Assembly (NCBI RefSeq): GCF_000196355.1
Contig: NC_007614.1
Coordinates: forward strand, 600,001 to 632,000
Origin: Nitrosospira multiformis ATCC 25196
Lineage (GTDB): Bacteria; Pseudomonadota; Gammaproteobacteria; Burkholderiales; Nitrosomonadaceae
DNA: 32,000 nucleotides
Reading direction: 5' to 3'
This document shows positions 2,454 to 30,829 of this stretch, one piece after another. Under the pieces are notes generated by a model, which saw only the letters and a program-made list of their open reading frames with translations, did not search any database and had not been told where the DNA came from. Position numbers and translations under genes: made by a program. Numbering within the stretch: the stretch's first letter is position 1; every line of letters begins with the position of its first letter.

Positions 2454-3395
2454 TTATAACGAAGTCGAGTCGTAGACGTAACCCAGGTCTTCCGTATCCA
2501 CCAGGTCATCGTATGATTCCCCCCATGGGTCCATGATGCGGTCAGACCCGCTCAGGTTAGGTTCCGCCGATGAGTTGGCCTGTTGCCAGATATGCCACAA
2601 ACGATCCACTTCGGCATGATGGAGCCAGAAAACCGGATCCGTGGGTGATGACATCGTATTGTTCATGATGCCACCCACCCAGGCATGACCGTGATTATGG
2701 CCGGGAAGGCTCGTTCCATCCGGTCTCCGGCCCCAGCCCTCGAGCCCGTAAGTGAATTTCGTATAGTCATTTTCATTGTTCAGACCGGTATTCTGGATGG
2801 AGAACTGGTTAACGATGATATCCACATCCGTCGCGTTGGCTTTTTGCGGTGGTGAAGCATTTTTGCGTGAGGGTGGGGGTGTTCCCGTATCCGGATCGTT
2901 TGCAGGCAGAAAACCGTTCAGCCAGGCGGGGAAGGGATCTTCCCAGCGCCAATAAGGGACCGCGAGTTTTTCAGTTGCACCGGGACGGAGAACAGCGTCA
3001 ACACGCTGCAATTCCCGCTCGAACTCGACGAGATAACGGCGATGCCAGCCCAGAAAACGATAAAGGCCTGTCTCGCCCATCATGCCATGCATGTCGTGCG
3101 ACATATCCCTATGAAACTGGACCAGTTCGAGGTATTTGCCTTCCTCCACCAGACGAACAACCGCATTGCGGAATGCTTCCCGTTTTTCGGGCGAAAGGTC
3201 CGCCTGATTCTGGCGGGTGACCGGTGCGCCCGGCGGTTTGGGCGCAAAGGCGGCTGCTCCGCCCAGCAGGGGTTTTACCAGTTTCTTATGGATATCCTTA
3301 AGCAACTCCAGCTTGTCCAGGGGAAAGCCGAGAGCGATAACTTCATCGAAGGTTTTAGGGTGGAGGTGCGCGCCGGTCTTATGCGAATGGTCCAT
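2454..3395 (-). CDS. Tyrosinase-family type-3 (binuclear) copper protein
   Basis: The ORF track gives 2454..3491. I prefer the internal ATG at 3395 (AGGAG 7 nt upstream, MDHSHKTG...). CuA-type histidines lie in FHRDMSHDMHG...GWHRRY and CuB-type histidines in HNHGHAWVGG...FWLHHAEVDRLW. No Sec or Tat signal peptide is evident. Confidence 0.85.
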   Translation of the reverse strand: MDHSHKTGAHLHPKTFDEVIALGFPLDKLELLKDIHKKLVKPLLGGAAAFAPKPPGAPVTRQNQADLSPEKREAFRNAVVRLVEEGKYLELVQFHRDMSHDMHGMMGETGLYRFLGWHRRYLVEFERELQRVDAVLRPGATEKLAVPYWRWEDPFPAWLNGFLPANDPDTGTPPPSRKNASPPQKANATDVDIIVNQFSIQNTGLNNENDYTKFTYGLEGWGRRPDGTSLPGHNHGHAWVGGIMNNTMSSPTDPVFWLHHAEVDRLWHIWQQANSSAEPNLSGSDRIMDPWGESYDDLVDTEDLGYVYDSTSL

Positions 3396-3798
3396 TTTTT
3401 TGCTCCTGACAAAGGGTTCAAGGAAAACAACCGGCGCAATATGACTCTCGCTCGATGCCAATACGCCTTGCACACAATAACTATAGTACATGGCGATTGA
3501 TCCGCTCGATTTTACACAGTCCGACTATATCTGTCTGCGCTTGAGCTTGAGCTCGATCGAGAGCTCTGTGCCCAAAGGCATTTCGCTTCAAAAAGACCGA
3601 CCTGGTAGCAGCGGCTGTTGATCATTAAATACGGCAAGCGTTTATCCTGGTCTTGCAGCCAATACAATGAACCCGGTACTCGACCCGAAAGGAGGCCCGG
3701 AGCAAGAACGAGCCCATCAAGGCCATGCCCGAAAACTGGTTTCGCCAAGGCCAATGCGAGGAATCAGCAAAAGAACATACACCTGATAAAAATTCACA

Positions 3799-3826: not shown

Positions 3827-4067
3827 GAAATAGGTGGATTAAGCGGAGGCGCCTGAGTCTGAGTGGGCGGACCCGATTTCTGATGGCAGGATTGGTCGCT
3901 GGTCTTGTCTTTTGAAGAGCGGGGCATGTGGCGAGCAACCGGAGAAAACCTTATTCGAGTTTGGAAGAACTGCTACACCGAGTCCGGGATGCGGCAGGAG
4001 CAGGCGAATCGTGCGGTGCCGGACCCGGGTTAATGAAGAATGCGTAACAGGAGATAGGGAGGTAATA

Positions 4068-4499
4068 ATGGCTTACGATATTCAGCAGGTGATCAATATG
4101 TCGCAAGACGAGCTCGATAAATTGTTTTCTTCCGGGGAAGTGGGCGAGATACCGGACGGTGAAGCAAAGGGCACCGCTATTATCGCGCCCGGTACGCCTT
4201 ACAACTATGCGATCGCGCAGGTCATCAATTTTTTTGCCTGGCAGGGAAAGATTTTTGACGCCAAGACAAGTACGTTGAAGAACGAAATTTCACCTTTTGG
4301 CTTTCGCGCGATCATCGCCAAGGTGTACAAGGACGATAGCTGGTTCGATCACAAGCCATGCATTGTTCTCGATTATTCGGAAACCTCCACAGTGGCCCAA
4401 CGGGTCCGTGACGAAATCCGCAAGGTGGCGGACAAGCAATATCTGGGGAAGGTTTACTGGGGCAACAAGCACCTTATAGATTTCTTCCTGCAGTTCTGA
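4068..4499 (+). CDS. Conserved hypothetical protein (143 aa), function unknown
   Basis: The ORF track gives 3912..4499. The internal ATG at 4068 has a strong SD (GGAGATAGGGAGG) just upstream. The product MAYDIQQVINMSQDELDKLF...VLDYSETSTVAQRVRDEIRKV...YLGKVYW resembles a widespread uncharacterised family (recollection only, no domain name assigned). Confidence 0.6.
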   Translation: MAYDIQQVINMSQDELDKLFSSGEVGEIPDGEAKGTAIIAPGTPYNYAIAQVINFFAWQGKIFDAKTSTLKNEISPFGFRAIIAKVYKDDSWFDHKPCIVLDYSETSTVAQRVRDEIRKVADKQYLGKVYWGNKHLIDFFLQF

Positions 4500-4711: not shown

Positions 4712-6016
4712 ATGACACCTCAATCCAGCTTCATGATTGTTGCGGCTGTACGTAACGGGCAGTTGAAAGACCTGCGCGCCTTGCTGGCTTCGATGAATAA
4801 CCTGCCCGGTCATGCTGACCCCAACAATGAACTGATGCCATTTGGGAAGTTTGATCGCCTGCACTTTGCACGTTTCGTGCTCATAGAAGCAAGAACCGCG
4901 CAGGAAATCAGAGCATTCGGCGTAACGCCGAGACCGTGGCAACCCACGCTCGCCTTTCTTGGCGATATTGACGGGGATATGCAGACTTTTTTTCTGGAAC
5001 TGATCGAGCGCGCGGAGCCGGGTCTGAAAAAAATCTTTTCTCATTGCGAAGGTTTTTCCGAGGAAAATCAGGATCTCCTGGGCTGGATGAAGGCAAACAA
5101 TATAAATGCCAGCGCCACCTATGTTAACTGGATCGGGCGAACGGTCAGGCAAATCCATGAAGAAGCAGCGCTCCATCGAAGTTTGTCTGCCTATCTGCCG
5201 AAAACTGTTGACGATGTGGGCCGGGAGAATGTGCGTGCCTTGCGGCAAAAGCTGTTGTCTTATGTGGAAATGGAAAAATATAAAGGCAGGCTTACGTTAA
5301 CCCCGCCAGAACCCACGCCCCCCGAATGGAAAATGCGCAATCTTCTGCATATGATCGGGGTTCCATTGATCCTGCTTCTTCTATCTCCGCTATTACTGGT
5401 TATCGCACTTATCTTTGCACTACGTTTGAGAATGCTCGAACGCTCTGACCCTGAGCTCTTTATCCGGCCCAGCCGTGAACATTTGGCGGAGCTTACCGTG
5501 CAGGAAGATCGGGATGTCAGTAACCAGTATAGTGTGTTCGGTGACGTGAAACCTGGGGGGGTCCGCTTACTGACTTTCAAATTCGTACTCCTGGTGACCG
5601 ACTATTTGGCCCGGCACATATACAACCGTGGATTTCTCGCCCGAATAAAAACGATTCATTTTGCCCGGTGGGTGTTCATGGACAATAACCACAGGGTTTT
5701 TTTCGCCAGCAATTACGATGGCAGCCATGAAAGCTATATGGATGATTTTATCAATAAGGTCGGCTGGGGCCTCAATCTTACCTTCACCAATGGTGTCGGC
5801 TACCCTACCACCCGGTGGATCATCAAGGAAGGTGCAAACCGGGAACATGCATTCAAATATACGCAAAGGCGGCATCAAATACCCACCGAGGTTTGGTATA
5901 AGGCGTACCCGGGATTAACGGCCGTTGATCTGGCGCGAAACAGTCGTATCCGGCAAGGTGTGGAAATTCGGCAATCCAATGATGCGGAAATCCGTGAATG
6001 GCTCAGCCTGATCTGA
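4712..6016 (+). CDS. Hypothetical membrane-anchored protein, partner of the downstream DyP peroxidase
   Basis: 434-aa ORF with a central hydrophobic segment LLHMIGVPLILLLLSPLLLVIALIFALRL (about aa 211-239). An internally repeated module flanks it: LHFARFVLIE...AFLGDIDGDMQTFFLELI and IHFARWVFMD...FFASNYDGSHESYMDDFI. Its stop (6014..6016) overlaps or abuts the DyP start region. Confidence 0.7.
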   Translation: MTPQSSFMIVAAVRNGQLKDLRALLASMNNLPGHADPNNELMPFGKFDRLHFARFVLIEARTAQEIRAFGVTPRPWQPTLAFLGDIDGDMQTFFLELIERAEPGLKKIFSHCEGFSEENQDLLGWMKANNINASATYVNWIGRTVRQIHEEAALHRSLSAYLPKTVDDVGRENVRALRQKLLSYVEMEKYKGRLTLTPPEPTPPEWKMRNLLHMIGVPLILLLLSPLLLVIALIFALRLRMLERSDPELFIRPSREHLAELTVQEDRDVSNQYSVFGDVKPGGVRLLTFKFVLLVTDYLARHIYNRGFLARIKTIHFARWVFMDNNHRVFFASNYDGSHESYMDDFINKVGWGLNLTFTNGVGYPTTRWIIKEGANREHAFKYTQRRHQIPTEVWYKAYPGLTAVDLARNSRIRQGVEIRQSNDAEIREWLSLI

Positions 6017-6027
6017 GGAGCATGGAA

Positions 6028-7542
6028 ATGAAAGAATCAAGCGACTTTGAATTCGATGATCTTCAGGGGCTGCTGCGCTTTGGATATGGGAAGCTGACGG
6101 ATACCTCTTTCCTGCTGCTGAATATCGTAAATGCCGATCTGGCCAAAAAATGGCTGGAGACAGCACCCATCAGCAGCGCCGTCACGCAGGATCCTCCGCC
6201 AGAAACGGCGCTGCAGATTGCCTTTTCCGTGGAGGGTCTGCGTGTCCTCGGACTGGAGGAATCCGTTGTCGAGGGCTTTTCCGATGAGTTCATCGTGGGT
6301 ATGGCAGGAGATGAAAGCCGTTCCCGACGCCTGGGTGATATCGGCAGCAATGCGCCCCAGCAGTGGAAATGGGGAGGCAATGCGGCGCAGGTACCCCATG
6401 TCCTGTTACTGCTTTACGCCACGGAAGGAGGGATCGGCGCCTGGCAAAAAACCATAGAAGGCGAACATTTCTCCAACGCATTTGAGTTGCTGCAGGAATT
6501 ACCTACGCTTTATATCGGTGACATCGAGCCTTTCGGATTTCCGGACAGCATCAGCCAGCCAACCGTGGACTGGATGCAGCGGCAAAGCACGGATACTCAC
6601 GAGCGCGATCGTTATTCCAACTTGCTGGCTCCTGGAGAAATCGTACTTGGCTATCGCAATGAATATGGGCAGTACACTGCGCGCCCGCTCATCGATCCCC
6701 GGAAAGACAAGCTTGCAACCATGTTGCCTGGTGCCGAGGATGATCCCCCCCTAAAGGATTTCGGCCGTAATGGCACTTATCTGGTGCTTCGGCAACTGGG
6801 CCAGGATGTTCCGGGTTTTTGGCAGTTTCTTGACCAGGTGGCGGATCACATACCGGAAAAACGCGAGCAACTTGCCGCAGCGATGGTGGGCCGGGAACTC
6901 GACGGCACGCCCTTGGTTCCGGCCCACATTCCCGGCATTTCGCGCAAAGAATATGAGAACGATTTTACTTATGAGCAGGACCCAAAGGGGAACTATTGCC
7001 CCCTCGGCGCCCATGTGCGCCGGTCCAATCCGCGTACAGGCGATTTGCCCACGAGTGCATGCGGTCCCGTAGACCGGTTGATCAAAATACTGGGTTTTGG
7101 TCAAAGACCGGATGAAGATCTGGTCGCCTCTTCCCGTTTTCATCGTTTGCTGCGGCGTGGTCGCACTTATGGACCCGCCCTTGCACCGAAAGACGCTGTC
7201 GAACGCCATGCGCCTGTCGCCGAACGGGGAATACAGTTTATCTGCCTCGTGGGCAACATATCGCGGCAATTCGAATTTGTTCAGAATGCATGGACCATGA
7301 ACAGTAAGTTCGATGGCGTGCAAGATGAAAAAGATCCCATGCTGGGGAATCGCGAACCCTTGATGAGCGGGGAGAGCACTGATCATTTCAATTCTCCTGA
7401 TCCGGCCGGGCCGATGCGGACAACCTGTCATTTGCCGCAATTTGTTACCACCCTTGGGGGGGGATATTTTTTTATGCCCGGGCTGCGCGCACTCAAATAC
7501 ATTTCCGCCTTACCTGCTAACAGGACTGGTAGCCCATCATGA
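6028..7542 (+). CDS. Dyp-type (dye-decolourising) haem peroxidase
   Basis: N-terminal DDLQGLLRFGYG; GRELDGTP (catalytic-Asp region); proximal-His context CPLGAHVRRSNPR; C-terminal RRGRTYGP...GIQFICLVGNISRQFEFVQNAW. The ORF track starts at 5998. ATG 6028 lies 7 nt after GAGGAG (6015..6020). ATG 6022 or 5998 remain possible. Confidence 0.85.
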   Translation: MKESSDFEFDDLQGLLRFGYGKLTDTSFLLLNIVNADLAKKWLETAPISSAVTQDPPPETALQIAFSVEGLRVLGLEESVVEGFSDEFIVGMAGDESRSRRLGDIGSNAPQQWKWGGNAAQVPHVLLLLYATEGGIGAWQKTIEGEHFSNAFELLQELPTLYIGDIEPFGFPDSISQPTVDWMQRQSTDTHERDRYSNLLAPGEIVLGYRNEYGQYTARPLIDPRKDKLATMLPGAEDDPPLKDFGRNGTYLVLRQLGQDVPGFWQFLDQVADHIPEKREQLAAAMVGRELDGTPLVPAHIPGISRKEYENDFTYEQDPKGNYCPLGAHVRRSNPRTGDLPTSACGPVDRLIKILGFGQRPDEDLVASSRFHRLLRRGRTYGPALAPKDAVERHAPVAERGIQFICLVGNISRQFEFVQNAWTMNSKFDGVQDEKDPMLGNREPLMSGESTDHFNSPDPAGPMRTTCHLPQFVTTLGGGYFFMPGLRALKYISALPANRTGSPS

Positions 7543-8744
7543 CGAAGATAAAGAACCGGATACTGAAGGCTATTCACAATTTTCTGATTCTGCTGCTGCG
7601 GATCGAACGCCGGCTGGAACCCTGGTTCCGCGCACAGTGGAACTACCTCTTTCGCGAACCCAGCGCGAAGTTTATCCAGTATTTGATCAATCGTCGACGC
7701 AAGAACGAAGGTTTGCAGCTGGCCGAAGAAAAATTCTATCCGGATGAAGAAGAAAGCCTGAACAAGATTATCGATCTCATGATGGATCAGATGCGCGGTC
7801 GCTTCAAACCGGGAGGGTATGAGCGGGGCGGCAATACAAAAACACACGGCATTGTGCGTGCCACGGTAACCATACGGGATGATTTGCCGGAGCATTTCCG
7901 CAAGGGGATTTTTGCGTACCCGCGTACTTATCCTGCCTATGTGCGTTATTCCGGACCGGGGCCGAATGTGCCTGCGGATATCAATGATGTCGGCTTCATG
8001 AGCATGGCGGTGAAACTCATGGGTGTTCCGGGCGAAAAACTCATGAGCGAGGAGAAATTCACCCAGGATTTCATAACGACCAGTGGCGGCGCGACGTTCG
8101 TCACACCCAACACGCGGGAAAATGCCAAGCTGCAATACTGGAGCTTGGTGGACATGACGCTTTATTATTTTCTCAATCCCAAGGATTCCCACCTGCTTGA
8201 CTTCTTCATGCAGAGCTTGTGGAACGAAACTCAGTATAACCCGCTGGGACGGCGTTACTGGAGCTGCACTCCCTATCTGCTGGGGGAGGGACAAGCCATG
8301 ATGTATTCATTCGTGCCGAAAACGACAGATGTTGAAACCCATATTCCCGGCCTGCCATTTGGCACCCCGCCGTTTAATTATCTGCGGGAGAACATGATCA
8401 AGACCTTGAATGAGAAGGATGTCGAGTTTGATCTTATGATTCAGCTCCAGACGGACCCTCATCTGATGCCCATTGAAGATAGTTCGGTACGCTGGCCGGA
8501 GGAGCTTTCACCGTTTATTCCCGCTGCCACGGTTCATATCCCGAAACAGAAATTTGATTCCGATGCGCAGTTTGAGTTTGCCAAGCGGCTGAAAATGAAC
8601 CCGTGGCATTGCCTGCCTGAACACCGGCCATTAGGCAACTTGAATCGGGCGCGCTTCAGAATGTACTACGAGCTATCCAAATTCCGGCAGGAGATGAATG
8701 AAACCACACATCTGGAACCCACCGGGGATGAGATATTCGATTAG
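7539..8744 (+). CDS. Catalase-related haem protein (mini-catalase / allene-oxide-synthase-like)
   Basis: 401 aa. The start overlaps the DyP stop as ATGA (7539..7542). The distal-site motif is GGNTKTHGIVRA (His103 at 7845..7847, preceded by Thr). The C-terminal region RPLGNLNRARFRMYYELSKFR looks like a proximal Tyr context. The size is far below a canonical catalase. Confidence 0.8.
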   Translation: MTKIKNRILKAIHNFLILLLRIERRLEPWFRAQWNYLFREPSAKFIQYLINRRRKNEGLQLAEEKFYPDEEESLNKIIDLMMDQMRGRFKPGGYERGGNTKTHGIVRATVTIRDDLPEHFRKGIFAYPRTYPAYVRYSGPGPNVPADINDVGFMSMAVKLMGVPGEKLMSEEKFTQDFITTSGGATFVTPNTRENAKLQYWSLVDMTLYYFLNPKDSHLLDFFMQSLWNETQYNPLGRRYWSCTPYLLGEGQAMMYSFVPKTTDVETHIPGLPFGTPPFNYLRENMIKTLNEKDVEFDLMIQLQTDPHLMPIEDSSVRWPEELSPFIPAATVHIPKQKFDSDAQFEFAKRLKMNPWHCLPEHRPLGNLNRARFRMYYELSKFRQEMNETTHLEPTGDEIFD

Positions 8745-8828
8745 CAACCGGGTTGATCAAATACCAGTGTTCATACCGGTTTCTACAATTCTCAGGCTGC
8801 TTGGTGAAATATCCGGGCTAACTCCCAT

Positions 8829-8872
8829 TAAATAGTTTACACCGTTAGTTACACCGTTTGGAATGAATCTGG
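8829..8872 (-). repeat. Degenerate extra copy of the 3' terminus (last codons plus stop context) of the lipoxygenase gene
   Basis: TTAAATAGTTTACACCGTT/AGTTACACCGTTTGGAATGAATCTGG at 8829..8872 matches CTAAATGGTTACACCGTTCGGAATGAATCTTGG at 10090..10122 (encoding RFIPNGVTI-stop). The copy carries an internal ~12-bp tandem duplication (GTTTACACCGTTA / GTTACACCGTTT). Confidence 0.6.
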
Positions 8873-9338
8873 CAACTGGGTAAAAACCAGATATATCGGC
8901 TTTATAGCGAAGAGCAGCCTCAGCTTCCCTCGAAACTGCCCAGGCAACGCAAGACGAGGGTCACATGCCAGGCAAAGCTCAAGCGGACCAACCCCATGAA
9001 GGGTGAGCATGCACTTTATGCCGGGCCAACTGGGCCAACGGGATGAAATTCAGGATGGAATTTCAGTACGCGGACGATGGTGGATGTCTTCAGCAAGGAA
9101 GCGCTGGTAATCGGGTAGGTCTGCGTCTGCAAAGAGAACAGGCAGTTTCCACGCTAAATCGACTGGCCGCACACCTTCAGGCCTCTCCAATATCTTTTTG
9201 TCGAAGCCCAATTCTCCGGATAGTTGCGGTAGGGCGAATCAACCCCCCTCAGGTGTTGCGCCAGTTGTGGAGCGGCTACGTGGGGTAATACGCACTTGTC
9301 ATCGCCATGGATAAATGGTTCACAAAAGGAGAGCGATT

Positions 9339-9974
9339 ATGTCTAGAGAACTTGATCGTCGGGATTTCAGTACGAACAAGGTAACGCCGGTGCAAGAGGC
9401 TGAGCTGAACTCACGCGCCTCGGACGTCTCAACTCGTCTTCCTGGAGGACATCCGGTCCGAATTTCGAGCTTCGATGCAACTACCGGCAACCCCAGGGTG
9501 ATCACCTCGGACGGTGCGTCGGCAGAGAAGGGTAACTACATTCCGCGAGCCTTGGACCACGTACGGAGTGTTAGTGGGGTTTTGGGCTTGGCTGTAACCC
9601 AACCGCCCGAGTTTACGGTTGATCCCCATATCCAGGGGACCAGCAGTGGCGCCGTAATCGTTCACCTGCAGCAGCAATATAAGGGAATCCCCATCTTCCA
9701 GGCGGCGCAAGCCGTGCGCTTTAGGCCTGGCTGCGCGGCGCCCTGTGCTTGGCCTGGGAGGTGATCCTGGCGATGCCCGGCTACCAGGGTCAGTACCGCA
9801 CGATTGTGGATGCCGACAACGGCGAGGATACTGTACTGCCACCAGATGGTGCAGACAGTGGCAGCACGCGGGAATGTTTACCGTGTCGATGGAGGACCGT
9901 GGCTGGACTTCAAGTTTCTCTTCGGCAGCAGGAATCTTGCCGGAGAGGACCGCATCTACGCTGCGGTTGCCTAA
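9339..9974 (+). pseudogene. Frameshifted, truncated remnant of a secreted thermolysin-like (M4-type) metalloprotease: propeptide (FTP/PepSY-like) region only
   Basis: ATG 9339 follows AAAGGAG. An FTP-like motif SSGAVIVHLQQQYKGIPIFQAAQAVRF is present. Continuity is then lost and a PepSY-like stretch resumes in another frame (ALCLAWEVILAMPGYQGQYRTIVDADNGE). A further +1 shift gives ILYCHQMVQTVAARGNVYRVDGG, ending at TAA 9972..9974. No HEXXH catalytic domain follows. Confidence 0.6.
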
Positions 9975-10089
9975 CCACGGCTTCGGCTTCCAGCCGACGC
10001 CAAAATCGGGCGTGGCTGAAGCGCAGCCCCCTTGTATACCCCTAAATCCTACCTATAAGAAAAGAACTTCAGACGTATTTCAGGAATGA

Positions 10090-11751
10090 CTAAATGGTTA
10101 CACCGTTCGGAATGAATCTTGGATTCATGCGATCATAGGCGAAAGAACGTCTGCTATTTCTTTGGTCGATTTCCTCTTCTATTTCCTCCAGCCTGTCCCC
10201 AAACCGCTCTATCACCTCGTGTGCTTCAGAATCGAATTGCTTTAAGTTGTACTGACCGATCGAGTTGACACAAAAATTTGTCAGAAAATAGGTCCAGGTT
10301 TGCGAATAGGCGGCTCGAAAGGTCGGCAGAAACTTCAATAAGCCAGCTCCATCAATTTCAGCGTTTTTTCCAGCCGGGGGCGGCGCATAAGCTGAATGCG
10401 GCATATTGGGAACGAATCCCGGATACTTGTATTGGTTGAAGTGAATGCAGGAATGAAAAGCAGTACATAGAAAAATGATATGACCGAGAGTCTCGCTCAG
10501 CTCTTGCCTGGATTCGAATCGGGCAGGAAACCCGGGAATCCTGCCCCGATCCTGCGCACTGATATCATGTGCCCATGCCTGAGTTTCATAGTCATCAGTA
10601 ACATCCGCTTCAGATTTGTAATATAAATCGACATATTCTTTACTGAAGCTTTGAATCGCATTCCATAACAAAATGCCATCATCGCGATAGGGATAAAAAA
10701 GATCAGGATTATCGACTTCCCGCCTCGCAATATCATCGGAGAAGGCGGATTCTTTAAAATTAAAGCTTGTCATGCCATTGGCCATGCATTGCGTCATCGA
10801 GTCATAGTCTCCGGCAAATAACTCACCGTACCGGCCGGGTCGTCCCTTCCGGTCTTTCAGGAAAGTGTGCTGGTGATTGACATTGAGCGTGTGCTGAAGA
10901 TGCGGATTCAATAGAACGTAAAGCGGGTGAGATTTATAAAGCTGTCTTCGTGAAGCCATGATAATGGCTTCCATCACGTAATGAATACGGGTTGCATGGG
11001 TATACAGGATGTGATGGTTGCCATCCGCGACCTGGGCAAACATTTTTGCTGTCAGCCAGAGATTACCGTCTTTTGACGTATAGATTGGATTATCGGACCT
11101 GTCATCCTGGTATAGCTGGATGGCAACCGGCCGCAGCATGCCGTCCGGTTGCAGAAACAACACGACGATCGGAGTCGTGACATATTGTTTTTGCCCGTCG
11201 ATATAACCCGGATTTGACTGCAATACATCCAGGACTGCATAGTCCAGGACGTATATGCGTTTTTGCGCGGTGGCAGCCATATAATCGATTTCATCAATCT
11301 GCTCTTCAAAAATTTTTCGCATTTCTGCTTCCGGCAGTTTTTCCGGTAGAGGATTCTGACGGGTTACAGCGCGCAACATCACAGGATTTACTCCAATGAC
11401 GCGTTGCAGGCCAAATATCAGGTCTTGCTGGAAGCTATCCACGAGATCGGGGTTTGGAGGACTCGCCGGAAAAAAAACATAATCCCGATAACTTTCCATC
11501 GGCTTGCCGAGCAAGTAGCGTAAAAAGGTAACCGATAGGCTGGGTAAACTTGGAATCAGCCGTAAAAGATTCATTCCCCCACGGAGCCAATATCCAATGC
11601 CCGGTATCTCCCGCCATGGCAGTTTGCGCGCGACTGCAATAGTCTCGGCATACTCATAGGCGTATTGATACTCAGCTTGCCTTTGAAGAAGATAATTCTT
11701 CCGCTCTTCTTTACCTGTATTTTCTTCATTCTGCGGTAGCTTGTTCGACAC
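10090..11751 (-). CDS. Lipoxygenase (553-aa mini-LOX, catalytic domain only)
   Basis: GTG start at 11751 with AAGGAG 6 nt upstream. Motifs are WLTAKMFAQVADGNHHILYTHATRIHYVMEAII (His247-x4-His252), AFHSCIHFNQYKY (His433, His437) and a C-terminal ...RFIPNGVTI with terminal Ile. These are the classical LOX iron-ligand motifs. Confidence 0.9.
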   Translation of the reverse strand: MSNKLPQNEENTGKEERKNYLLQRQAEYQYAYEYAETIAVARKLPWREIPGIGYWLRGGMNLLRLIPSLPSLSVTFLRYLLGKPMESYRDYVFFPASPPNPDLVDSFQQDLIFGLQRVIGVNPVMLRAVTRQNPLPEKLPEAEMRKIFEEQIDEIDYMAATAQKRIYVLDYAVLDVLQSNPGYIDGQKQYVTTPIVVLFLQPDGMLRPVAIQLYQDDRSDNPIYTSKDGNLWLTAKMFAQVADGNHHILYTHATRIHYVMEAIIMASRRQLYKSHPLYVLLNPHLQHTLNVNHQHTFLKDRKGRPGRYGELFAGDYDSMTQCMANGMTSFNFKESAFSDDIARREVDNPDLFYPYRDDGILLWNAIQSFSKEYVDLYYKSEADVTDDYETQAWAHDISAQDRGRIPGFPARFESRQELSETLGHIIFLCTAFHSCIHFNQYKYPGFVPNMPHSAYAPPPAGKNAEIDGAGLLKFLPTFRAAYSQTWTYFLTNFCVNSIGQYNLKQFDSEAHEVIERFGDRLEEIEEEIDQRNSRRSFAYDRMNPRFIPNGVTI

Positions 11752-11822
11752 GAGGCACTCCTTTAAAAATAAGGTTTTCGCCTGGTTTCCATAGCCTTTC
11801 TATGTGCCCTATCTTTCACTGA

Positions 11823-13418
11823 TCACTGGACAGAGGTATTGAAGCTTGCAAGGACCGTATCGCTATCCCTTACATTACGTTTGACGATATCCGCAAGTGA
11901 GCTTGTTTCTTCAATAACGGATTGCCCAACTTTTGAAAATGTTTTTTCATTGTGTACATAAATCGATACAAGCGGGTTTGTCAGCGCATGGGTAAACGCA
12001 TCGTACCCCACCATCCGTACCATAAGGCGTCCAAGACTGAAGCCTTCATCATGATCTTCAGCAAATATGCCCACCTGCCACTCCAGATCGTCGATTCGGT
12101 CGTTATAAAGATCCTTCAGTTCCCGCTGTAGTTCGTTGTCTTCCGTCAATTCTTCGAAACTCCGTAAACGGGGCATGCTGAACGCTTCGCGATAGTCATT
12201 GAAAGGGCGCAGTCTGGCCTGCCGTCCCATTGCGATGGACCGCTCCATGACACTTCGATTATCGTCAGCAATGGGCAGCGGATAGAAAAAATAATCGTGC
12301 GTATTGTGAAGACCAATACGGCCCGCTCTTTGCATCGATGCAGCCGTTATCAACCTTCCAATGCCGTGTTGAATTACCAGCGGGGTATTGTTGCGAAACG
12401 CATCCAGCGGATAGGACTGGTTACCGACTCTGTAGCTTTCCGGGACCATGGAATGCCACCGGTACAGGAGGTTGAATTCCAGAGAGATCCAGTTGGTGCG
12501 GTACCAGCGTTGCCTTTCCGCCAGATCAGGGGATGGGTCGAGGGTAAAACCAAACTGTGTAAAACGCGAAACGTAATCTGCCAGAACCACTTTGATCAGC
12601 AGCACGACCATGATGTTTCTTGCCGTCTGAAACAGGCGTTCATCATCCCATTTTGGGTAAGCTTCTTTTAGCAGGTCACAAATCCGGTTGTGTTCACGCA
12701 GCATCACGGTATTCATTATGGTATAGCCAACCGATGAGTTGCCGTGCTCCAGTCCGGCGGCAAACACGCGTTTCAACCGTTCCTCGGGGACATTGCTAAA
12801 AACAAAATCCAGAACCTCGCGGGGATGCAGCTTCTCGAATTCTTTATCTGCGAATACCCAATTGCCCGTGGTCGTTTCCTCCACGTTAAAAAGGTAGGGA
12901 GGAAAAATTTCTCCACCGATAATCTGGGACTTCAGCTTCCCATCTTTTTTCAGCCGTAAATAATGCGTGATTTCTTCCCGCAAACCATAGATCTGGCAAA
13001 GATCGATTTCATGGTTCGATGTATTTTTCCGGCGATCGCGAAAATCCGTCCTGAGGAAACTATCGGTAAACCACTGGGCAAAGAAAGCAAACAGTATGCT
13101 TGTATCGACCGAAGGTATTTCCTTGTTCTCTTTTCTTCGCCATAAATCCACGACTCTTTGCATGTCCGGAAGATTCTGATCGCCTTCCGCCTCCGCCAGG
13201 TGGCGTCCGGTAAATGACTTGTCAGTCAACGATTGCCATGTCGTATAAGATGAAGCCAGCGAGAACGGCCGGGGCCGAGGATTGGTGGAATAGGCTTGCC
13301 AATTGATAAAAGCGTCACTGATAAACCGCCGTAACCATGTTATCCGCGAAACAATTCTGACGAGCCAGGGAAATCTGTTTGCAATCCGAAACAGGATCGG
13401 AAAAAAGAATTCATACAT
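11823..13418 (-). CDS. Cyclooxygenase-like haem peroxidase (animal haem peroxidase / PGHS-like family)
   Basis: Long colinear similarity to vertebrate COX as I recall it: FAFFAQWFTDSF, LKKDGKLKSQIIGGEIFPP, MLREHNRICDLLKEAYPKWDDERLFQTARNIMVVLLIKVVLADYV, EFNLLYRWHSMVP, RLRPFNDYREAFSMPRLRSFEELT. The gene sits 71 nt upstream of, and co-directional with, the lipoxygenase. Confidence 0.9.
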   Translation of the reverse strand: MYEFFFPILFRIANRFPWLVRIVSRITWLRRFISDAFINWQAYSTNPRPRPFSLASSYTTWQSLTDKSFTGRHLAEAEGDQNLPDMQRVVDLWRRKENKEIPSVDTSILFAFFAQWFTDSFLRTDFRDRRKNTSNHEIDLCQIYGLREEITHYLRLKKDGKLKSQIIGGEIFPPYLFNVEETTTGNWVFADKEFEKLHPREVLDFVFSNVPEERLKRVFAAGLEHGNSSVGYTIMNTVMLREHNRICDLLKEAYPKWDDERLFQTARNIMVVLLIKVVLADYVSRFTQFGFTLDPSPDLAERQRWYRTNWISLEFNLLYRWHSMVPESYRVGNQSYPLDAFRNNTPLVIQHGIGRLITAASMQRAGRIGLHNTHDYFFYPLPIADDNRSVMERSIAMGRQARLRPFNDYREAFSMPRLRSFEELTEDNELQRELKDLYNDRIDDLEWQVGIFAEDHDEGFSLGRLMVRMVGYDAFTHALTNPLVSIYVHNEKTFSKVGQSVIEETSSLADIVKRNVRDSDTVLASFNTSVQ

Positions 13419-13762: not shown

Positions 13763-15859
13763 ATGTCCCCTTCCCACCAGCCCCCGGAAAGTCAGCCCAC
13801 TGTCAAAGTTTTTGACCCGCTGGAGCTTGACCGTTCCGTGATTGCCATTCCTCTTCTGCGGCAGATGGAGGAGGAATTAAGAGGAATTGAAGCTTTTCGG
13901 GCTGCACATCCGTTCCCCGAAGATGGAGAATTCAATACGCTGATCGAATACAACAGGGAATTCGATGGAAAGCCGGAGGAGATGCGGGAGTTGGTCGTCA
14001 AGATGGCCGAAGAGGCGGCAGCGAAGGCATTGGAAGCATCGAAAAAACGAGTCGAAGAGAGCAAGGAGATAGCCCCAGCGGGAACACGGGGCACGCCGGT
14101 GCGCGGTGGCTCGACAAGGAGTCGGGCTGATATTTACGGAAATCCTTTTTTGATGGAGCAACGGCGCGACAAGGATCTCCAGGAAGCGGTCGGGAATCAG
14201 AAAATCGGACCGGTCTCGGAGGACGGCGCCTATAGCTTTGCCAGCTTGCACGCAACCATAATACGGCGAATATTAGCCGCAAACGAACGGCTGTCACAGG
14301 GTGAGGAAGCTTCAAAGAAACCACCTATCCTTCGGATCCACCCTACACGTTATGAGGTCATCATCGATATCAATCTCGAATATCCGGGTGGACGGGAAGA
14401 GGCCCGGCGCTGGATTTACCAGAATATCGAAGAGGCCAAGAACAAAGCGAAAGTGTACGACGCGGGTCAGGATATTCATCTCAAGAAGGAACAGCGCGAA
14501 AGCGGCTACATGTTCGCCTGCCTGGAAGCTCGTACCATCAAGGCGCTTATCGAACTCGATGTTGCCCAGGCAAAGGTGAAGGCGCGCGAAGCTCAGGCAA
14601 AAGTGGGGGATACGAGCCATGAAGCGAAGGCTCGTGCAGCAAAAATCAACCCGGCCAAGTTTCGCGCCATCTTCCGCATATGGCCGGATTTCGAGATTTC
14701 TGCCTCCATCACCCACTCCATCGCCACGATAAAAGCCGATGCAGCGCAGAATTCTTTTTCCGCGCGGGGCGCCGGAATCACCTGGGCGGTGATGGATTCA
14801 GGAATAAAGCAGGATCATGGGCACTTTCGCAAACACAACAATGTCGATAAAGACTCCACATGGCATAAAGACTTCACGGCGGACGGCAGCGATCCGTTCA
14901 ACGATGAGAACGGGCATGGAACGCATGTGGCAGGCATCATTGCCGGCGAATGGCGTCCGGCAGGTGCACCAGGAGGGACACAAGTGGCCGCGCCAGCGGA
15001 GGTTTCACCTCCGGCGGGCGATTCCGCCGCACCATCCCGAATTCCTGTAGCGGTTTCCCGTTATCTGAAAACGGGTTCCGAAGATGTCGAATACCAGCAG
15101 ATAAAACTCGTGGACGGCATCAGCGGGATGGCGCCGCGCTGCAAGCTGATAAGCCTGCGGGTGTTGGACGAAAACGGAAAAGGGAGTGTGAGCAATCTCA
15201 TTGCGGCCATCGCCCATGTGCAGGAGATCAACGGTTACGGCCGAAAGCTTCTGATCCACGGAGTCAACATGAGCCTGGGATATACCTTCGAGCCCGAATG
15301 GTTCGCCTGCGGCCAGAGTCCGCTCTGCGTGGAGGTTGACCGGCTGGTAAAAACCGGCGTCGTGGTCGTGGTCGCCGCAGGCAATACAGGTTACGGCACG
15401 TTGAAGGCCGCCACAGGCGCGCTCTCGGCAGGAATGGCGCTGACCATCAATGATCCCGGCAATGCGGAACTCGCCATTACAGTGGGTTCGACCCACCGCG
15501 ACATGCCGCACGTTTACGGGGTTTCCTATTTTTCCTCGAAAGGCCCGACAGGCGACGGCCGCCTCAAGCCGGACCTCGTCGCGCCCGGCGAAAAAATCAT
15601 CTCCTGCGCCACGGGTCAGTTAAAAAGCGAGGGCGCACAGGGGATCGAATGCGACTACGTCGAAACCAGCGGCACGAGTATGGCAGCTCCCCATGTCAGC
15701 GGCGCGATCGCAGCGTTTCTCTCGGTGCGCACCGAGTTCATCGGCAAGGCAGAACGTGTTAAAGAGATTTTCGTTGATACGACTACTGACCTGCGGCGCG
15801 ACCGCTACTTTCAGGGCAGTGGTCTCGTTGATCTGATGCGCGCTATTCAGTCGGTGTGA
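13763..15859 (+). CDS. Subtilisin-like serine protease (S8 family) with a ~330-aa N-terminal extension
   Basis: The Asp/His/Ser triad motifs are in canonical order: WAVMDSGI (D345), HGTHVAGIIAG (H385), GTSMAAPHVSGAIAAF (S639), plus oxyanion AAGN. SD AAGAGG lies 5 nt upstream. The N-terminus MSPSHQPPESQPT... has no signal peptide. The N-terminal third is charged and coiled-coil-like. Confidence 0.85.
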   Translation: MSPSHQPPESQPTVKVFDPLELDRSVIAIPLLRQMEEELRGIEAFRAAHPFPEDGEFNTLIEYNREFDGKPEEMRELVVKMAEEAAAKALEASKKRVEESKEIAPAGTRGTPVRGGSTRSRADIYGNPFLMEQRRDKDLQEAVGNQKIGPVSEDGAYSFASLHATIIRRILAANERLSQGEEASKKPPILRIHPTRYEVIIDINLEYPGGREEARRWIYQNIEEAKNKAKVYDAGQDIHLKKEQRESGYMFACLEARTIKALIELDVAQAKVKAREAQAKVGDTSHEAKARAAKINPAKFRAIFRIWPDFEISASITHSIATIKADAAQNSFSARGAGITWAVMDSGIKQDHGHFRKHNNVDKDSTWHKDFTADGSDPFNDENGHGTHVAGIIAGEWRPAGAPGGTQVAAPAEVSPPAGDSAAPSRIPVAVSRYLKTGSEDVEYQQIKLVDGISGMAPRCKLISLRVLDENGKGSVSNLIAAIAHVQEINGYGRKLLIHGVNMSLGYTFEPEWFACGQSPLCVEVDRLVKTGVVVVVAAGNTGYGTLKAATGALSAGMALTINDPGNAELAITVGSTHRDMPHVYGVSYFSSKGPTGDGRLKPDLVAPGEKIISCATGQLKSEGAQGIECDYVETSGTSMAAPHVSGAIAAFLSVRTEFIGKAERVKEIFVDTTTDLRRDRYFQGSGLVDLMRAIQSV

Positions 15860-15897: not shown

Positions 15898-17214
15898 ATG
15901 AATGAAATCGCGGGAATTCCTTATGTGGAAGCAAGCTTCGACAAGAACGGTCAGGGTCCTGAAGAGGAGGTCGCTCTGCCTGCCGGGGTGACCGACCTTA
16001 TCATCATGTCGCACGGCTGGAACAACAACAAGTCCAAGGCAGAAGATCTGTATAACGGTTTTTTTGCAAGCTTTGCCGCTGCCGCCCAGCCAAACGATTT
16101 ATCCGCCCGAAAGCTTGTCATTCTGGGGGTATTCTGGCCATCCAGGGAATACGATACGTCTGTTGCCGTTTCAGGTACTCCTGCCACTGGGGGAGGCGGC
16201 GCCGCCCTCGGGGGTGGAAACGGCGGTTCGATCAAGCGGCTGGAAGAGAAACTGGACGACATGAAAGAAATCTTCACGGAGGCGGAACAGAAGAAACTTC
16301 TTGATGAGGCGAAAGCATTGCTTCCGGATCTCGAGGAAAAAGCCTCGGTCCGGGATCTATTTGTGAACAAAATGCGCTCCCTGCTCGATCCGAGCGCTGC
16401 AGGAAAAGAGGATGCGTCCAATATCTTCTTCAAGGATGGCGGCAACGAACTGATGAAAAACCTGAAGGCCGAGGAAGAGGATCTGGGCGAGGATGTCGCG
16501 GGAGGCGGGGCAGCGTTGCCGCTCGGGGTGAGCACTCCTGCGCGGGCAGAAGGCGGAGCGGCGGGATTGGTAGAAATTCTTTCGGGATTCAAGGCAGCTG
16601 CCATAAACCTGCTCAACTATACCACCTACTACGAGATGAAGACGCGATCGGGAACCGTTGGAAAGAACGGGGTTGCCCCGCTGATCGATAAACTTGCCTC
16701 GCAGGTCGAACGCATCCATCTGATCGGGCACAGCTTCGGCTGCCGTGTCGTCACCTCGGCGGCACTCGGCTCGAAAACCGACAAGATAAAAAGCATGATA
16801 CTCCTCCAGGCGGCCTTCTCCCAGAACGGTTTTTCAAAAATTGAACAGGGATTTTACCGTGCGATCGTGGATAATCATCGAGTCAAGGGCCCGGTCCTTA
16901 TCACGCATACGCCCAATGATAGAGCAGTAGGTCTGGCGTATCCGCTCGCATCTCGCATCAGCGGCGACAAAACCATGGCGTTCGGCGATAAGGATGATCT
17001 GTTTGGAGCGATGGGCCGTAATGGAGCGCAGAAAATGGAGCAGGGCGAAGCCGTCGAAGGCAAGCTGCTTTCCGTAGGCGGCCCCTATGCTTTCAAGGCC
17101 AATACTTATTTCAATCTCGAAGCCAGCGATTTCATCAAGAACCACAACGACATAAAAGGGAAGGAAGTTGGCTACGTGGTCCGCAAGGTCGTCGCAACCG
17201 CAGGAATGGGCTAA
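15898..17214 (+). CDS. Alpha/beta-hydrolase-fold protein (DUF900-like), function unknown
   Basis: AAGGAG lies 7 nt upstream. Motifs are IIMSHGWNN (oxyanion-type HG), nucleophile elbow LIGHSFG (S279), then THTPNDRAVG (Asp) and KNHNDI (His) in S-D-H order. A Gly/Ala/Glu-rich ~160-aa insert is present. No signal peptide. The gene starts 38 nt after the S8 gene. Confidence 0.7.
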   Translation: MNEIAGIPYVEASFDKNGQGPEEEVALPAGVTDLIIMSHGWNNNKSKAEDLYNGFFASFAAAAQPNDLSARKLVILGVFWPSREYDTSVAVSGTPATGGGGAALGGGNGGSIKRLEEKLDDMKEIFTEAEQKKLLDEAKALLPDLEEKASVRDLFVNKMRSLLDPSAAGKEDASNIFFKDGGNELMKNLKAEEEDLGEDVAGGGAALPLGVSTPARAEGGAAGLVEILSGFKAAAINLLNYTTYYEMKTRSGTVGKNGVAPLIDKLASQVERIHLIGHSFGCRVVTSAALGSKTDKIKSMILLQAAFSQNGFSKIEQGFYRAIVDNHRVKGPVLITHTPNDRAVGLAYPLASRISGDKTMAFGDKDDLFGAMGRNGAQKMEQGEAVEGKLLSVGGPYAFKANTYFNLEASDFIKNHNDIKGKEVGYVVRKVVATAGMG

Positions 17215-23867: not shown

Positions 23868-25124
23868 CTATGGGAGGATTTTCTCGCCTGCCATCAATTG
23901 CTCGACCGATTCCCGCTCGCGAATGAGATGAATGCGGTCGCCATCGATCATCACCTCGGCGGCGCGTGGACGCGCATTGTAATTAGAGCTCATGCTCATG
24001 CCATAAGCGCCGGCCGACATGACAGCGAGCAGATCACCCTGCGCCAGCGCCAGGTGGCGGTCATGCCCAAGAAAATCGCCGGTTTCGCATACCGGACCGA
24101 CAACCTGATAGGTTTTTGCATCCATTTCGTTGCGCGCAACCACCGGAAGGATTTCATGGTAAGCCTTATATAAGGCCGGGCGCATCAGGTCGTTCATGGC
24201 TGCATCGACAATGGCGAAATCGCGATGCGGCGTAGGCTTGAGATACTCGACGGTTGTAAGCAGTACACCCGCATTGCCCACCAGCGATCTTCCCGGTTCG
24301 ATCAGGATTTTCTGCCTGCGGTTGCCCACCACGCTGCGTAACGCCTCGACATATTCCCGTGCCGAGGGGGGATTTTCCCCGGCATAACGTATCCCCAGGC
24401 CGCCGCCCAGATCGAGGTGCTCGATCTCCAACCCTTGCGCCTCCAGCCGGTCGAGCAGCCCCAGCATCTTCTTGCAGGTTTCGATGAAAGGCGCCAGTTC
24501 GGTCAATTGCGAGCCGATATGGCAATCGAGACCGGCCACCCGTACATTGCCAAGCGCCTGCGCAGAAGCATAAAGCGCCTCCGCCTCATCGAAAGGAATG
24601 CCGAACTTGTTTTCCTTGAGTCCGGTGGAAATATATGGGTGCGTTTTCGCATCCACATCCGGGTTCACCCGCAGGCTCACCGGCGCAACCTTGCCCATTT
24701 CTCCGGCCACGCGGTTCAGCCCATGCAACTCCGCTTCCGATTCCACGTTGAAGCACAGTATGCCCGCTTCGAGCGCCGCTTTCATTTCCGCAGGCTGCTT
24801 GCCCACACCCGAAAAAACGATTTTCTGTGGATCGCCCCCCGCCTTCAATACCCGCTGAAGTTCTCCCCCGGAGACGATGTCGAAGCCGCTACCCAGGCGG
24901 GCGAGCAGATTGAGAATGCCAAGGTTGGAATTCGCCTTGACGGCGTAACAGACCAGATGATCGCGTCCTGCGAAGGCATCGTCGAATTCACAGTAGGCTG
25001 TAGTCAGCGCCGCGCGCGAATAGGCATAGCAGGGCGTGCCGAATTCAAGCGCGATGCGCTCCAGTTGCACCGACTCTGCCCACAAATGCCCATTGCGGTA
25101 ACTGAAGGAAGGAAAACCGCTCAC
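23868..25124 (-). CDS. lysA: Diaminopimelate decarboxylase
   Basis: Motifs are GTPCYAYS, PLP-Lys context CYAVKANSN, GGGLGIRY, EPGRSLVGNAG and CETGD. The ORF track extends to 25208, but that extension overlaps a convincing small lipoprotein gene. GTG 25124 (VSGFPSFSYRNGHLWAE) gives about 418 aa and a GTGA overlap with the upstream stop. Confidence 0.9.
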   Translation of the reverse strand: MSGFPSFSYRNGHLWAESVQLERIALEFGTPCYAYSRAALTTAYCEFDDAFAGRDHLVCYAVKANSNLGILNLLARLGSGFDIVSGGELQRVLKAGGDPQKIVFSGVGKQPAEMKAALEAGILCFNVESEAELHGLNRVAGEMGKVAPVSLRVNPDVDAKTHPYISTGLKENKFGIPFDEAEALYASAQALGNVRVAGLDCHIGSQLTELAPFIETCKKMLGLLDRLEAQGLEIEHLDLGGGLGIRYAGENPPSAREYVEALRSVVGNRRQKILIEPGRSLVGNAGVLLTTVEYLKPTPHRDFAIVDAAMNDLMRPALYKAYHEILPVVARNEMDAKTYQVVGPVCETGDFLGHDRHLALAQGDLLAVMSAGAYGMSMSSNYNARPRAAEVMIDGDRIHLIRERESVEQLMAGEKILP

Positions 25125-25255
25125 TTCTTTTTCTCTGTATCGGGAATTTTTTGTGGCTGCGCCGGAGCCGGCTCCTGCGGAAGGTAGAGGGGCCCCTTGA
25201 GGCCGCATGCGTTGAGCAGCAGGGCTATTAGGACGGCAGACGAGAGCGCGCGCAT
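25121..25255 (-). CDS. lptM: Small lipoprotein of the LptM/YifL (LppL) family, 44 aa
   Basis: Not in the ORF track (<60 aa). The product is MRALSSAVLIALLLNACGLKGPLYLPQEPAPAQPQKIPDTEKKK. It has a lipobox followed by the CGLKGPLY(F/L)P signature I recall from E. coli YifL/LptM and Pseudomonas LppL, which classically sit just upstream of lysA/dapF. Confidence 0.7.
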   Translation of the reverse strand: MRALSSAVLIALLLNACGLKGPLYLPQEPAPAQPQKIPDTEKKK

Positions 25256-25454
25256 GAGACGATATGGGAAAAATGGAGCTGGAATACTAACATGGGGGAT
25301 AAGAGGTCTCTCTGTTTTCTCAACAACCCTTCGCTGAACGCTTTATTCAGAAGTAAAAACGGCGCAACTTCATCAGTTCAGACCTTAAGTATAAGTAGCC
25401 ACACCTAATCAATAACGAGACAACAAAAAACTTGAAACAAATCCCGAAATCAAC

Positions 25455-30680: not shown

Positions 30681-30829
30681 GTCTGAGATAAAAGTAGTTT
30701 AAATTCTTGATTCAATCTTCCAGATGGGGCATTAGGATACTTTAGAAGGCATTCAAGAAGCCTCAGACGTGTAAACCTTTAACCAGCTTATCGAGAAAAT
30801 ATCTAATGCAGAGACACCTCCATGGGGTT

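Follow-up and report, generated by a model that had tools for sequence, protein, structure and literature searches.

Our literature search found no characterised bacterial relative of the animal cyclooxygenases (COX) besides the linoleate 10S-dioxygenase of Nostoc punctiforme (NpDOX, UniProt B2J5P4), which was described by Brash et al. (2014, JBC 289:13101), as reported in PMC13049297 and PMC9579011. NpDOX is a protein of 542 aa with approximately 31% identity to COX, and its three helices correspond to helices B–D of the COX membrane-binding domain (MBD) (PMC13049297). Its substrates are oleate and linoleate, and the 10S-hydroperoxides that it forms from them are then cleaved by a neighbouring catalase-related protein (PMC13049297; PMC9579011). 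A recent review based on AlphaFold models set the distal haem helices of the two enzymes side by side as ‘F205thqF of COX and F143tdsF of 10S-DOX’ (Oliw 2026, JBC, PMC13049297), DOX standing for dioxygenase; the fungal DOXs, by comparison, retain the distal His (PMC9579011; PMC13049297). In the DyP-type peroxidases it is a distal Asp that deprotonates H2O2 (PMC6153280). Here we describe a COX-like gene with an Asp in place of the distal His from Nitrosospira multiformis ATCC 25196. It lies at 11823..13418 on the reverse strand of a 32,000-nt stretch of that genome (NC_007614.1, positions 600,001 to 632,000), which is referred to below as the window and to which all coordinates refer unless another locus is named. 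From sequence comparison, we consider it probable that the product is a haem b tyrosyl-radical fatty-acid dioxygenase that makes hydroperoxides, of the same kind as the Nostoc 10S-dioxygenase and from the bacterial branch of COX.

The open reading frame (ORF) at 11823..13418 (-) encodes a COX-like haem protein of 531 aa from an ATG start with a GGAGA ribosome-binding site upstream, and shares 97% amino-acid identity with its counterpart in Nitrosospira multiformis Nl18. The protein matches the Pfam family PF03098 (An_peroxidase) at 6e-43, with 147.6 bits against a cut-off of 25. When it was compared with all PDB sequences using phmmer, the top match was mouse COX-2 (E 4.9e-69, residues 12–519), COX-2 and COX-1 ranking first at ∼235–236 bits. 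Weaker matches were obtained to peroxinectin (2e-20) and alpha-dioxygenase (1e-18 to 1e-13), with lactoperoxidase (LPO) and myeloperoxidase (MPO) lower; true peroxidases scored 76 bits at most. An AlphaFold (AF2) model built from 40 homologues was of high confidence (pLDDT 90.8, pTM 0.92), and Foldseek again returned COX-1/2 as the best structures (TM 0.83, 31–33% identity), followed by alpha-dioxygenase (TM 0.70) and with peroxinectin, LPO and MPO also among the matches. On the PF03098 match, the alpha-helical haem-peroxidase fold and the proximal His322, the protein is assigned to the peroxidase-cyclooxygenase superfamily. The likeness to COX had been proposed in an earlier note, made by reading the DNA without database searches, and it is confirmed by the phmmer, Pfam and Foldseek results. 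Given the Pfam E-value and the TM-score of the model, the motif matches to COX discussed below lie far past chance. Neither this protein nor the lipoxygenase encoded next to it has a model in NCBIfam, and database labels on its homologues include peroxidase-family protein, putative cyclooxygenase-2 and prostaglandin-endoperoxide synthase 2.

Residues were placed in COX-1 numbering by the offset taken from the phmmer/PDB alignment, in which both the catalytic and the distal motif fall in gap-free blocks against COX-2 (efnllyrwh against EFNTLYHWH, and faffaqWftDsf against FAFFAQHFTHQF). The catalytic segment, EFNLLYRWHSMVP from residue 314, includes Y319-R320-W321-H322 (12453..12464, -), which align with the catalytic Tyr385, with His386 (here replaced by Arg), with Trp387 and with His388, the proximal ligand of the haem; Tyr319 is encoded by TAC at 12462..12464 and His322 by CAT at 12453..12455. 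N316 corresponds to Asn382, and Tyr282 (12573..12575, -) aligns with Tyr348, the partner of the catalytic Tyr. Arg320 adjoins the catalytic Tyr and could hold the substrate carboxylate or a haem propionate. The distal segment, FAFFAQWFTDSF from residue 110, includes the motif Q115-W116-F117-T118-D119 (13062..13076, -), and the distal block FAFFAQWFTDSFLRTD pairs ungapped with FAFFAQHFTHQFFKTD of COX. Of the His207/Gln203 pair of animal COX, Gln203 is kept as Gln115 (13074..13076) and His207 is replaced by Asp119 (GAT, 13062..13064), while His204 becomes Trp116 (13071..13073). A register shift of one residue, by which Asp119 would be the haem-ester Asp of animal peroxidases, was excluded, since the register is fixed by the spacing of Gln (+4) and by 16 residues that match COX without a gap. 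The earlier note had named as conserved the equivalents of Tyr385, His388 and Gln203, and the ungapped COX alignment bears this out (Y319, H322 and Q115), with the codon coordinates that it gave for D119, Y319 and H322 all exact. Its replacement of His207 by Asp and His204 by Trp likewise stands, although not as a peculiarity of the Nitrosospira gene, since Asp is found in all of the close homologues that could be compared.

Conservation was assessed in two sets of homologues. The close set comprised the 120 best matches, down to 48% identity, of which 118 span the distal motif; the diverse set came from a HMMER search through all of 1.84 billion representatives clustered at 50% identity, which gave 306 clusters at E ≤ 1e-30, the best 150 of which were analysed, down to ∼33% identity. 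Q-W-F-T-D was invariant in the close set (118/118). Among 140 diverse representatives, the distal position was Asp in 132, Glu in seven and Asn in one, and in none was it His. Because it is thus acidic in 139 of the 140 and never His across the family, the acidic distal residue is under selection in a large and old clade. Trp116 was found in 124 of the 140. The catalytic residues were close to invariant in the diverse representatives, with Tyr319 in 150/150, Arg320 and Trp321 each in 148/150, His322 in 149/150 and Tyr282 in 150/152. A word-indexed search returned 3079 homologues at E ≤ 1e-10, and 522 confirmed stretches encoding relatives were found when 185,579 genomes, one per species, were scanned; the size of the family argues for a selected, functional active site. 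Its members were found in the Nitrosomonadaceae, Methylomonas, Rhodococcus, Nocardia, Mycobacterium, Frankia, the Solirubrobacterales, alphaproteobacteria and cyanobacteria (Cyanobium).

The second distal position is where the Nitrosospira protein and its near relatives depart from the rest of the family. E224-H225 (12744..12749, -) align without gaps to Glu290-Val291 of COX (FAAGLEHGNSS against FAVGQEVFGLV), and the position of Val291 is that of the catalytic distal Arg in the R-x-x-E motif of animal peroxidases. Position 224 is acidic in 123 of 150 diverse representatives. Position 225 is His in 115 of 119 close homologues, whereas 90 of the 150 diverse representatives have Arg there, 30 have His and 30 have another residue. 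By alignment, then, Asp119 and His225 fall on the two classical distal catalytic positions, and His225 is a candidate second distal acid-base residue. The earlier note had allowed that a proper alignment might place another His in the distal pocket, and in part this is what was found: His225 lies at the COX Val291 position, its assignment to the distal pocket being alignment-based. The family at large accordingly carries an Asp and Arg distal pair, the arrangement seen in DyPs, and the His225 subclade an Asp and His pair. The DyP analogy that had been drawn for the Asp is a reasonable one for the wider family, in which a carboxylate would replace His as acid-base catalyst alongside Arg; the folds are unrelated and the likeness is mechanistic only. 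The distal pair of chloroperoxidase is Glu and His and that of unspecific peroxygenase Glu and Arg, and the Asp and His of the subclade resemble the Glu/His pair of the former. Val291 of COX is reported to lie near the distal His, and the dioxygenases to have a conserved Arg at that position (Oliw 2026, PMC13049297); this is the wording of the review for DOXs rather than the Nostoc sequence itself, and it contrasts with the His225 found here and in the subclade.

The N-terminus of the protein also aligns with COX. The model contains helices at residues 2–15, 17–25 and 27–42, and by model and alignment residues 2–42 (13293..13415, -) form three amphipathic helices homologous to those of the COX MBD. 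Residues 12–43 pair gap-free with residues 64–95 of the COX-2 chain (∼91–122 in COX numbering, the MBD helices), which places Gln41 at Arg120. The hydrophobic moments of the three helices are 0.51, 0.72 and 0.38, against a mean of 0.29 for the protein, and the first 45 residues, which include FFFPILFRIANRFPWLVRIV from residue 4, hold 12 aromatic residues and six Arg, with no transmembrane-like stretch and no hydrophobic signal-like N-terminus. In terms of the COX domain layout, the signal peptide, EGF module and helix A are missing and the sequence begins inside the MBD. The earlier note had suggested an N-terminal membrane-association helix in place of the EGF/MBD modules, but the N-terminal helices do not replace the MBD, with which residues 12–43 align. 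We infer that the protein is cytoplasmic and monotopic on the membrane.

The protein differs from the animal enzymes in the substrate channel, too. On the channel helix V470...A474...H477 (11988..12011, -), which aligns with Gly526, Ser530 and Gly533, no COX residue is kept; among the diverse representatives, Val470 was found in 128/138 and Ala474 in 134/137, with Gln in 93 and His in 33 at position 477. Further swaps by alignment are Arg120 to Gln41, Tyr355 to Phe289 and Tyr504 to Gln448. In COX, Gly526 and Gly533 allow endoperoxide ring formation and fit the omega end of C20 substrates, and mutagenesis has shown that Gly526 is required for ring closure. With Arg120, Tyr355, Gly526, Ser530 and Gly533 all exchanged, prostaglandin endoperoxides are therefore not expected as products, and the changes favour the formation of plain hydroperoxides, as by NpDOX. 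Overall, the protein has equivalents of Tyr385, His388, Tyr348, Trp387, Gln203, Asn382 and Glu290 in common with animal COX-1/COX-2, as well as membrane-binding helices. It differs from them at His207 (Asp), His204 (Trp), Val291 (His) and His386 (Arg) in addition to the six channel positions, and in having three helices only, where animal COX has a signal peptide, an EGF-like module and a four-helix MBD. It is, moreover, bacterial, operon-encoded and, as argued above, presumably cytoplasmic.

The likeness to NpDOX was judged by motifs and features quoted in reviews rather than by direct alignment to B2J5P4. Both proteins are ∼530–545 aa long, lack an EGF domain and combine three MBD-like helices (alphaB–alphaD) with a COX-like catalytic fold. 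They share the F-T-D-S-F distal helix (F117-T-D119-S-F121 in Nitrosospira), and the catalytic Tyr, the proximal His ligand and the counterpart of Tyr348 are present in both. Where COX has Gly526 and Ser530, NpDOX has I483 and A487 and the present protein V470 and A474, a hydrophobic residue and an Ala in each case. They differ at Q490 of NpDOX, which is His477 here, and at COX Tyr504, which is Phe in NpDOX and Gln448 here. The channel motif I483, A487, Q490 (PMC13049297, Table 2) stands at a constant 13-residue offset from V470/A474/H477 and is of similar character, while the upstream parts of the motif mismatch. None of the 414 proteins that we retrieved matched the NpDOX motif spacing and patterns. 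The fungal 8R-, 9- and 10R-DOX fusions with linoleate diol synthase, allene oxide synthase (AOS) or epoxyalcohol synthase (DOX-LDS/AOS/EAS) and the plant alpha-dioxygenases belong to the same superfamily and follow the same tyrosyl-radical dioxygenase logic. However, these enzymes have a distal His, lack COX-type MBD helices and are distant from the COX-like protein (E 1e-18 and TM 0.70 for alpha-dioxygenase).

The earlier note had raised the possibility of peroxide activation by an Asp or by a partner peroxidase. By analogy with NpDOX, which is active with FTDSF, the replacement of His by Asp is compatible with dioxygenase activity and does not imply an inactive or partner-dependent enzyme; as candidate partners, a DyP-type peroxidase gene and a catalase-related gene do lie in the neighbourhood. 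The proposed mechanism would run as follows. The COX-like protein would sit on the cytoplasmic face of the membrane through its three helices, and a trace of hydroperoxide would oxidise the ferric haem. In this step Asp119 would serve as acid-base catalyst, aided by Gln115 and by the residue at position 225, His here and Arg in most relatives. A free unsaturated fatty acid would then lose an allylic or bis-allylic hydrogen to the Tyr319 radical generated by the oxidised haem, and addition of O2 would give the fatty-acid hydroperoxide. Since the distal His is missing, peroxidase turnover would probably be weak and the hydroperoxide set free rather than reduced. Substrate and regiochemistry are not predictable from sequence.

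Immediately downstream of the COX-like gene lies that of a mini-lipoxygenase (LOX) of 553 aa (10090..11751, -; Pfam Lipoxygenase 1.1e-57) without a PLAT domain. Its iron-ligand motifs are HILYTH at 247–252 (HxxxxH), HSCIH at 433–437 (HxxxH) and the C-terminal Ile553. Its best PDB match was 5med (1.7e-74), a 569-aa chain deposited as arachidonate 15-lipoxygenase, which we take to be the Cyanothece mini-LOX. The two genes are separated by 71 nt (11752..11822, -), in which an AAGGAG ribosome-binding site precedes the start of LOX; as no terminator-like site is listed within this spacer, they are probably co-transcribed. Of 80 related loci, 21 have LOX as the next gene downstream of the COX-like one: every locus that shows at least 65% identity and whose downstream flank is intact, and in addition one (L004) in which the contig end cuts the LOX. 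These loci come from Nitrosospira, Nitrosovibrio, Nitrosomonas, Methylomonas and two metagenome-assembled genomes (MAGs), one of the Kordiimonadaceae and one of the Pseudomonadota. Neither the ammonia oxidisers and Methylomonas nor the other hosts of the pair are known to make polyunsaturated fatty acids. Among the 80 loci, the pairing was absent from the relatives of ∼50% identity. When neighbouring ORFs were clustered, no conserved neighbour emerged for the actinobacterial and alphaproteobacterial relatives at this level of identity, and the clusters that ranked highest were artefacts of ORFs that overlap or lie antisense to the COX-like gene. LOX could act in parallel on other substrates or be the source of the priming hydroperoxide.

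A four-gene operon on the forward strand converges on LOX. It begins with orf195 (3912..4499, +), which encodes 195 aa without a Pfam match and has 44% identity to the 151-aa gene that occupies the corresponding position in N. europaea. It is followed by the conserved orf434 (4712..6016, +), which encodes 434 aa with one hydrophobic segment and whose start/stop codons overlap with the DyP gene after it; there is 80% identity and synteny in N. europaea, no Pfam match and no detectable relative of known structure in the PDB. The third gene, at 5998..7542 (+), encodes a DyP-type peroxidase of 514 aa. A profile of it matched PDB entries 8re3 (9.8e-45), DyP2 4g2c (1.4e-30) and fungal DyPs (∼1e-27), and the single sequence gave weak matches to the Pfam families DyP_N and Dyp_perox_C. 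The product of the last gene, at 7539..8744 (+), is a catalase-related haem protein (401 aa; ‘catalase family protein’ at NCBI), and the gene lies 1.3 kb past LOX on the opposite strand. Searches of Pfam and the PDB with the single 401-aa sequence gave no match. Its profile matched PDB entries weakly (E 0.02–0.5), with the catalase-related AOS of coral, a catalase and the catalase-related protein of M. avium at the head of the list. All retrievable homologues being at least 79% identical, its AlphaFold model was poor (pLDDT 47), and Foldseek of that low-confidence model returned catalase folds only, led by the coral catalase-related AOS (best match 1u5u, 8e-7). The catalase-related assignment is therefore made on the NCBI name, the weak profile matches and the uniformly catalase-fold Foldseek set. 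At the edge of the cluster, a tyrosinase-domain protein is encoded at 2454..3491 (-; Pfam Tyrosinase 1.4e-35).

Much of this set recurs in N. europaea in another order, where a tyrosinase with a PPC domain (locus L084, 8328..9830; 30% identity to the Nitrosospira tyrosinase) lies immediately upstream of the COX-like gene. COX-like and LOX genes are followed there by a 921–953-aa An_peroxidase, then, on the other strand, by a GMC oxidoreductase and an 889-aa gene, and then by an orf151-orf434-DyP-catalase-family operon, so that the catalase-family gene is ∼10 kb from the COX-like gene. The gene set is kept together in Nitrosospira and Nitrosomonas despite rearrangement. The large An_peroxidase after LOX (L084 13487..16252; L085 13391..16252) and the GMC oxidoreductase beside it (L084 16340..18286), a possible source of H2O2, are not present in the Nitrosospira window. 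The 401-aa catalase-family protein has >6000 homologues, with at least 80% identity between beta- and gammaproteobacteria, and in three Rhodococcus loci a relative of 28% identity lies ∼3.7 kb away from the COX-like gene. Functional coupling of this gene to the COX-like gene is suggested by these arrangements, and both DyP and the catalase-related protein would be plausible downstream converters of the hydroperoxide. A catalase-related gene is found near NpDOX as well, although the direct operon partner in Nitrosospira is a lipoxygenase and not a catalase-related lyase.

Domain fusions within the family are also informative. Among proteins P0121, P0122, P0131, P0135, P0055 and P0139, Asp-type COX-like domains occur fused at their N- or C-terminal end to cytochrome P450, and once to a patatin-like phospholipase. 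By analogy, these fusions point to a free fatty acid entering and a hydroperoxide being passed to a second haem enzyme, much as the fungal DOX-P450 enzymes pass theirs on. Other Asp-type COX-like proteins have long N-terminal extensions without annotation.

Several points weigh against a fatty-acid dioxygenase of the Nostoc kind. The activity is a predicted one, both for the Nitrosospira protein and for the His225 subclade, and where Asp119 and His225 stand with respect to the haem iron is read from the alignment, just as the link to the Nostoc enzyme is made through motifs quoted in a review rather than a direct alignment. Furthermore, the family of which the catalase-family gene is a member is very large and highly conserved, and in most genomes this gene does not adjoin the COX-like one. 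Finally, the fatty acids of the ammonia oxidisers are mainly 16:0 and 16:1, and these bacteria are not known to make polyunsaturated ones, which makes natural substrates, those of LOX especially, hard to place. The tight and conserved operon raises the question of whether the COX-like protein might instead act after LOX, as a hydroperoxide-converting haem enzyme of the allene-oxide-synthase, hydroperoxide-lyase, epoxyalcohol-synthase or peroxygenase type, with an Asp/His pocket tuned to O-O cleavage of the LOX product. The loss of the classical distal His and the redesign of the distal pocket would suit such a role, and the pairing of LOX with a haem partner is a known theme, the coral AOS-LOX being the best structural match of the neighbouring catalase-related gene. 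However, the Tyr, its Tyr partner and the Trp that are near-invariant across the family (Tyr319 150/150, Tyr282 150/152, Trp321 148/150) serve hydrogen abstraction and not the rearrangement of hydroperoxides, the characterised relative NpDOX is a primary dioxygenase, the P450 fusions fill the converting role separately, and most family members have no LOX neighbour. We therefore regard a role after LOX as unlikely.

The oxidative neighbours (tyrosinase, DyP and the catalase-related protein) and membership of the peroxidase-cyclooxygenase superfamily could also be read as signs of a general peroxidase, using its Asp/His distal pair with H2O2 or organic hydroperoxides for oxidative-stress defence or substrate oxidation without oxygenating fatty acids, and an Asp-based distal pair does function in DyPs. 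Such a role is quite improbable given the 236 bits scored against COX and no more than 76 against any true peroxidase, and the presence of a COX-type fatty-acid channel helix and membrane-binding helices; in addition, the Asp and Glu that form the haem esters are not matched, T118 standing at the Asp and S228 at the Glu position (by the COX alignment and the MPO motifs). At the other extreme, that COX-1/2 are the best matches in both sequence and structure, and that relatives are labelled ‘prostaglandin-endoperoxide synthase 2’ in databases, might suggest a true cyclooxygenase, which would form prostaglandin-type endoperoxides from C20 polyunsaturated fatty acids. The exchanges of Arg120 for Gln, Tyr355 for Phe, Gly526 for Val, Ser530 for Ala, Gly533 for His and His207 for Asp, among them the Gly needed for ring closure, and the simple 10S-hydroperoxide yielded by NpDOX make this very improbable. 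If the lost distal His were taken alone, the gene might even be seen as the decayed, non-catalytic relic of a COX-like one. This we find hardly credible for an intact ORF with a ribosome-binding site, a confident AlphaFold model and active-site residues that are invariant over thousands of homologues from several phyla. A tyrosyl-radical dioxygenase of fatty acids thus remains the function that we consider probable for the COX-like protein.

The 1.3-kb gap between the catalase-family gene and LOX (8745..10089) has a higher GC content (0.57) and short ORFs only, one of which (9315..9764) has a sub-threshold match to a fungalysin/thermolysin propeptide and may be what is left of a peptidase gene. 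A subtilase (S8) gene (13763..15859, +) lies upstream of the COX-like gene and divergent from it, followed by that of a 438-aa, weakly alpha/beta-hydrolase-like protein (15898..17214, +); the two are conserved in this position only in Nitrosospira and Nitrosovibrio loci. A low-GC block at 25000..31700 (0.40–0.48, against ∼0.55 elsewhere) contains two response-regulator genes, a 1187-aa ORF without a Pfam match and an IS-type integrase (rve, 30830..31699), and was probably acquired horizontally.

The replacement of the distal His by Asp is the norm of a large bacterial family and is already in the literature for the Nostoc enzyme; alone, it is no discovery. The 2003 genome paper of N. europaea reportedly noted a COX-like homologue already. 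We found nothing relevant in the literature on N. europaea NE1239/NE1240, or on a lipoxygenase in Nitrosospira or Nitrosomonas. In the literature searched, both the subclade in which His replaces Arg at the second distal position and the COX-like/LOX operon of ammonia oxidisers, with its DyP, catalase-related and tyrosinase neighbourhood, appear to be unreported. For the question of how a COX fold forms its tyrosyl radical without the distal His, the Asp and His subclade, set against the Asp and Arg of the wider family, offers a useful natural comparison. Linoleic and linolenic acids are biological nitrification inhibitors that act on AMO and HAO (PMC9808040; bioRxiv 10.64898/2026.04.12.685468). 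It is conceivable, if rather unlikely, that the COX-like/LOX operon, with DyP and the catalase-related protein, oxidises exogenous unsaturated fatty acids of plants, as detoxification or sensing directed against such inhibitors in ammonia oxidisers and some methanotrophs, with the dioxygenase primed by the Asp119/His225 pair. More generally, the conserved pairing with LOX and the clustering with DyP and catalase-related genes suggest that ammonia oxidisers possess an unstudied bacterial oxylipin pathway, which may be relevant to the fatty acids by which plants inhibit nitrification.

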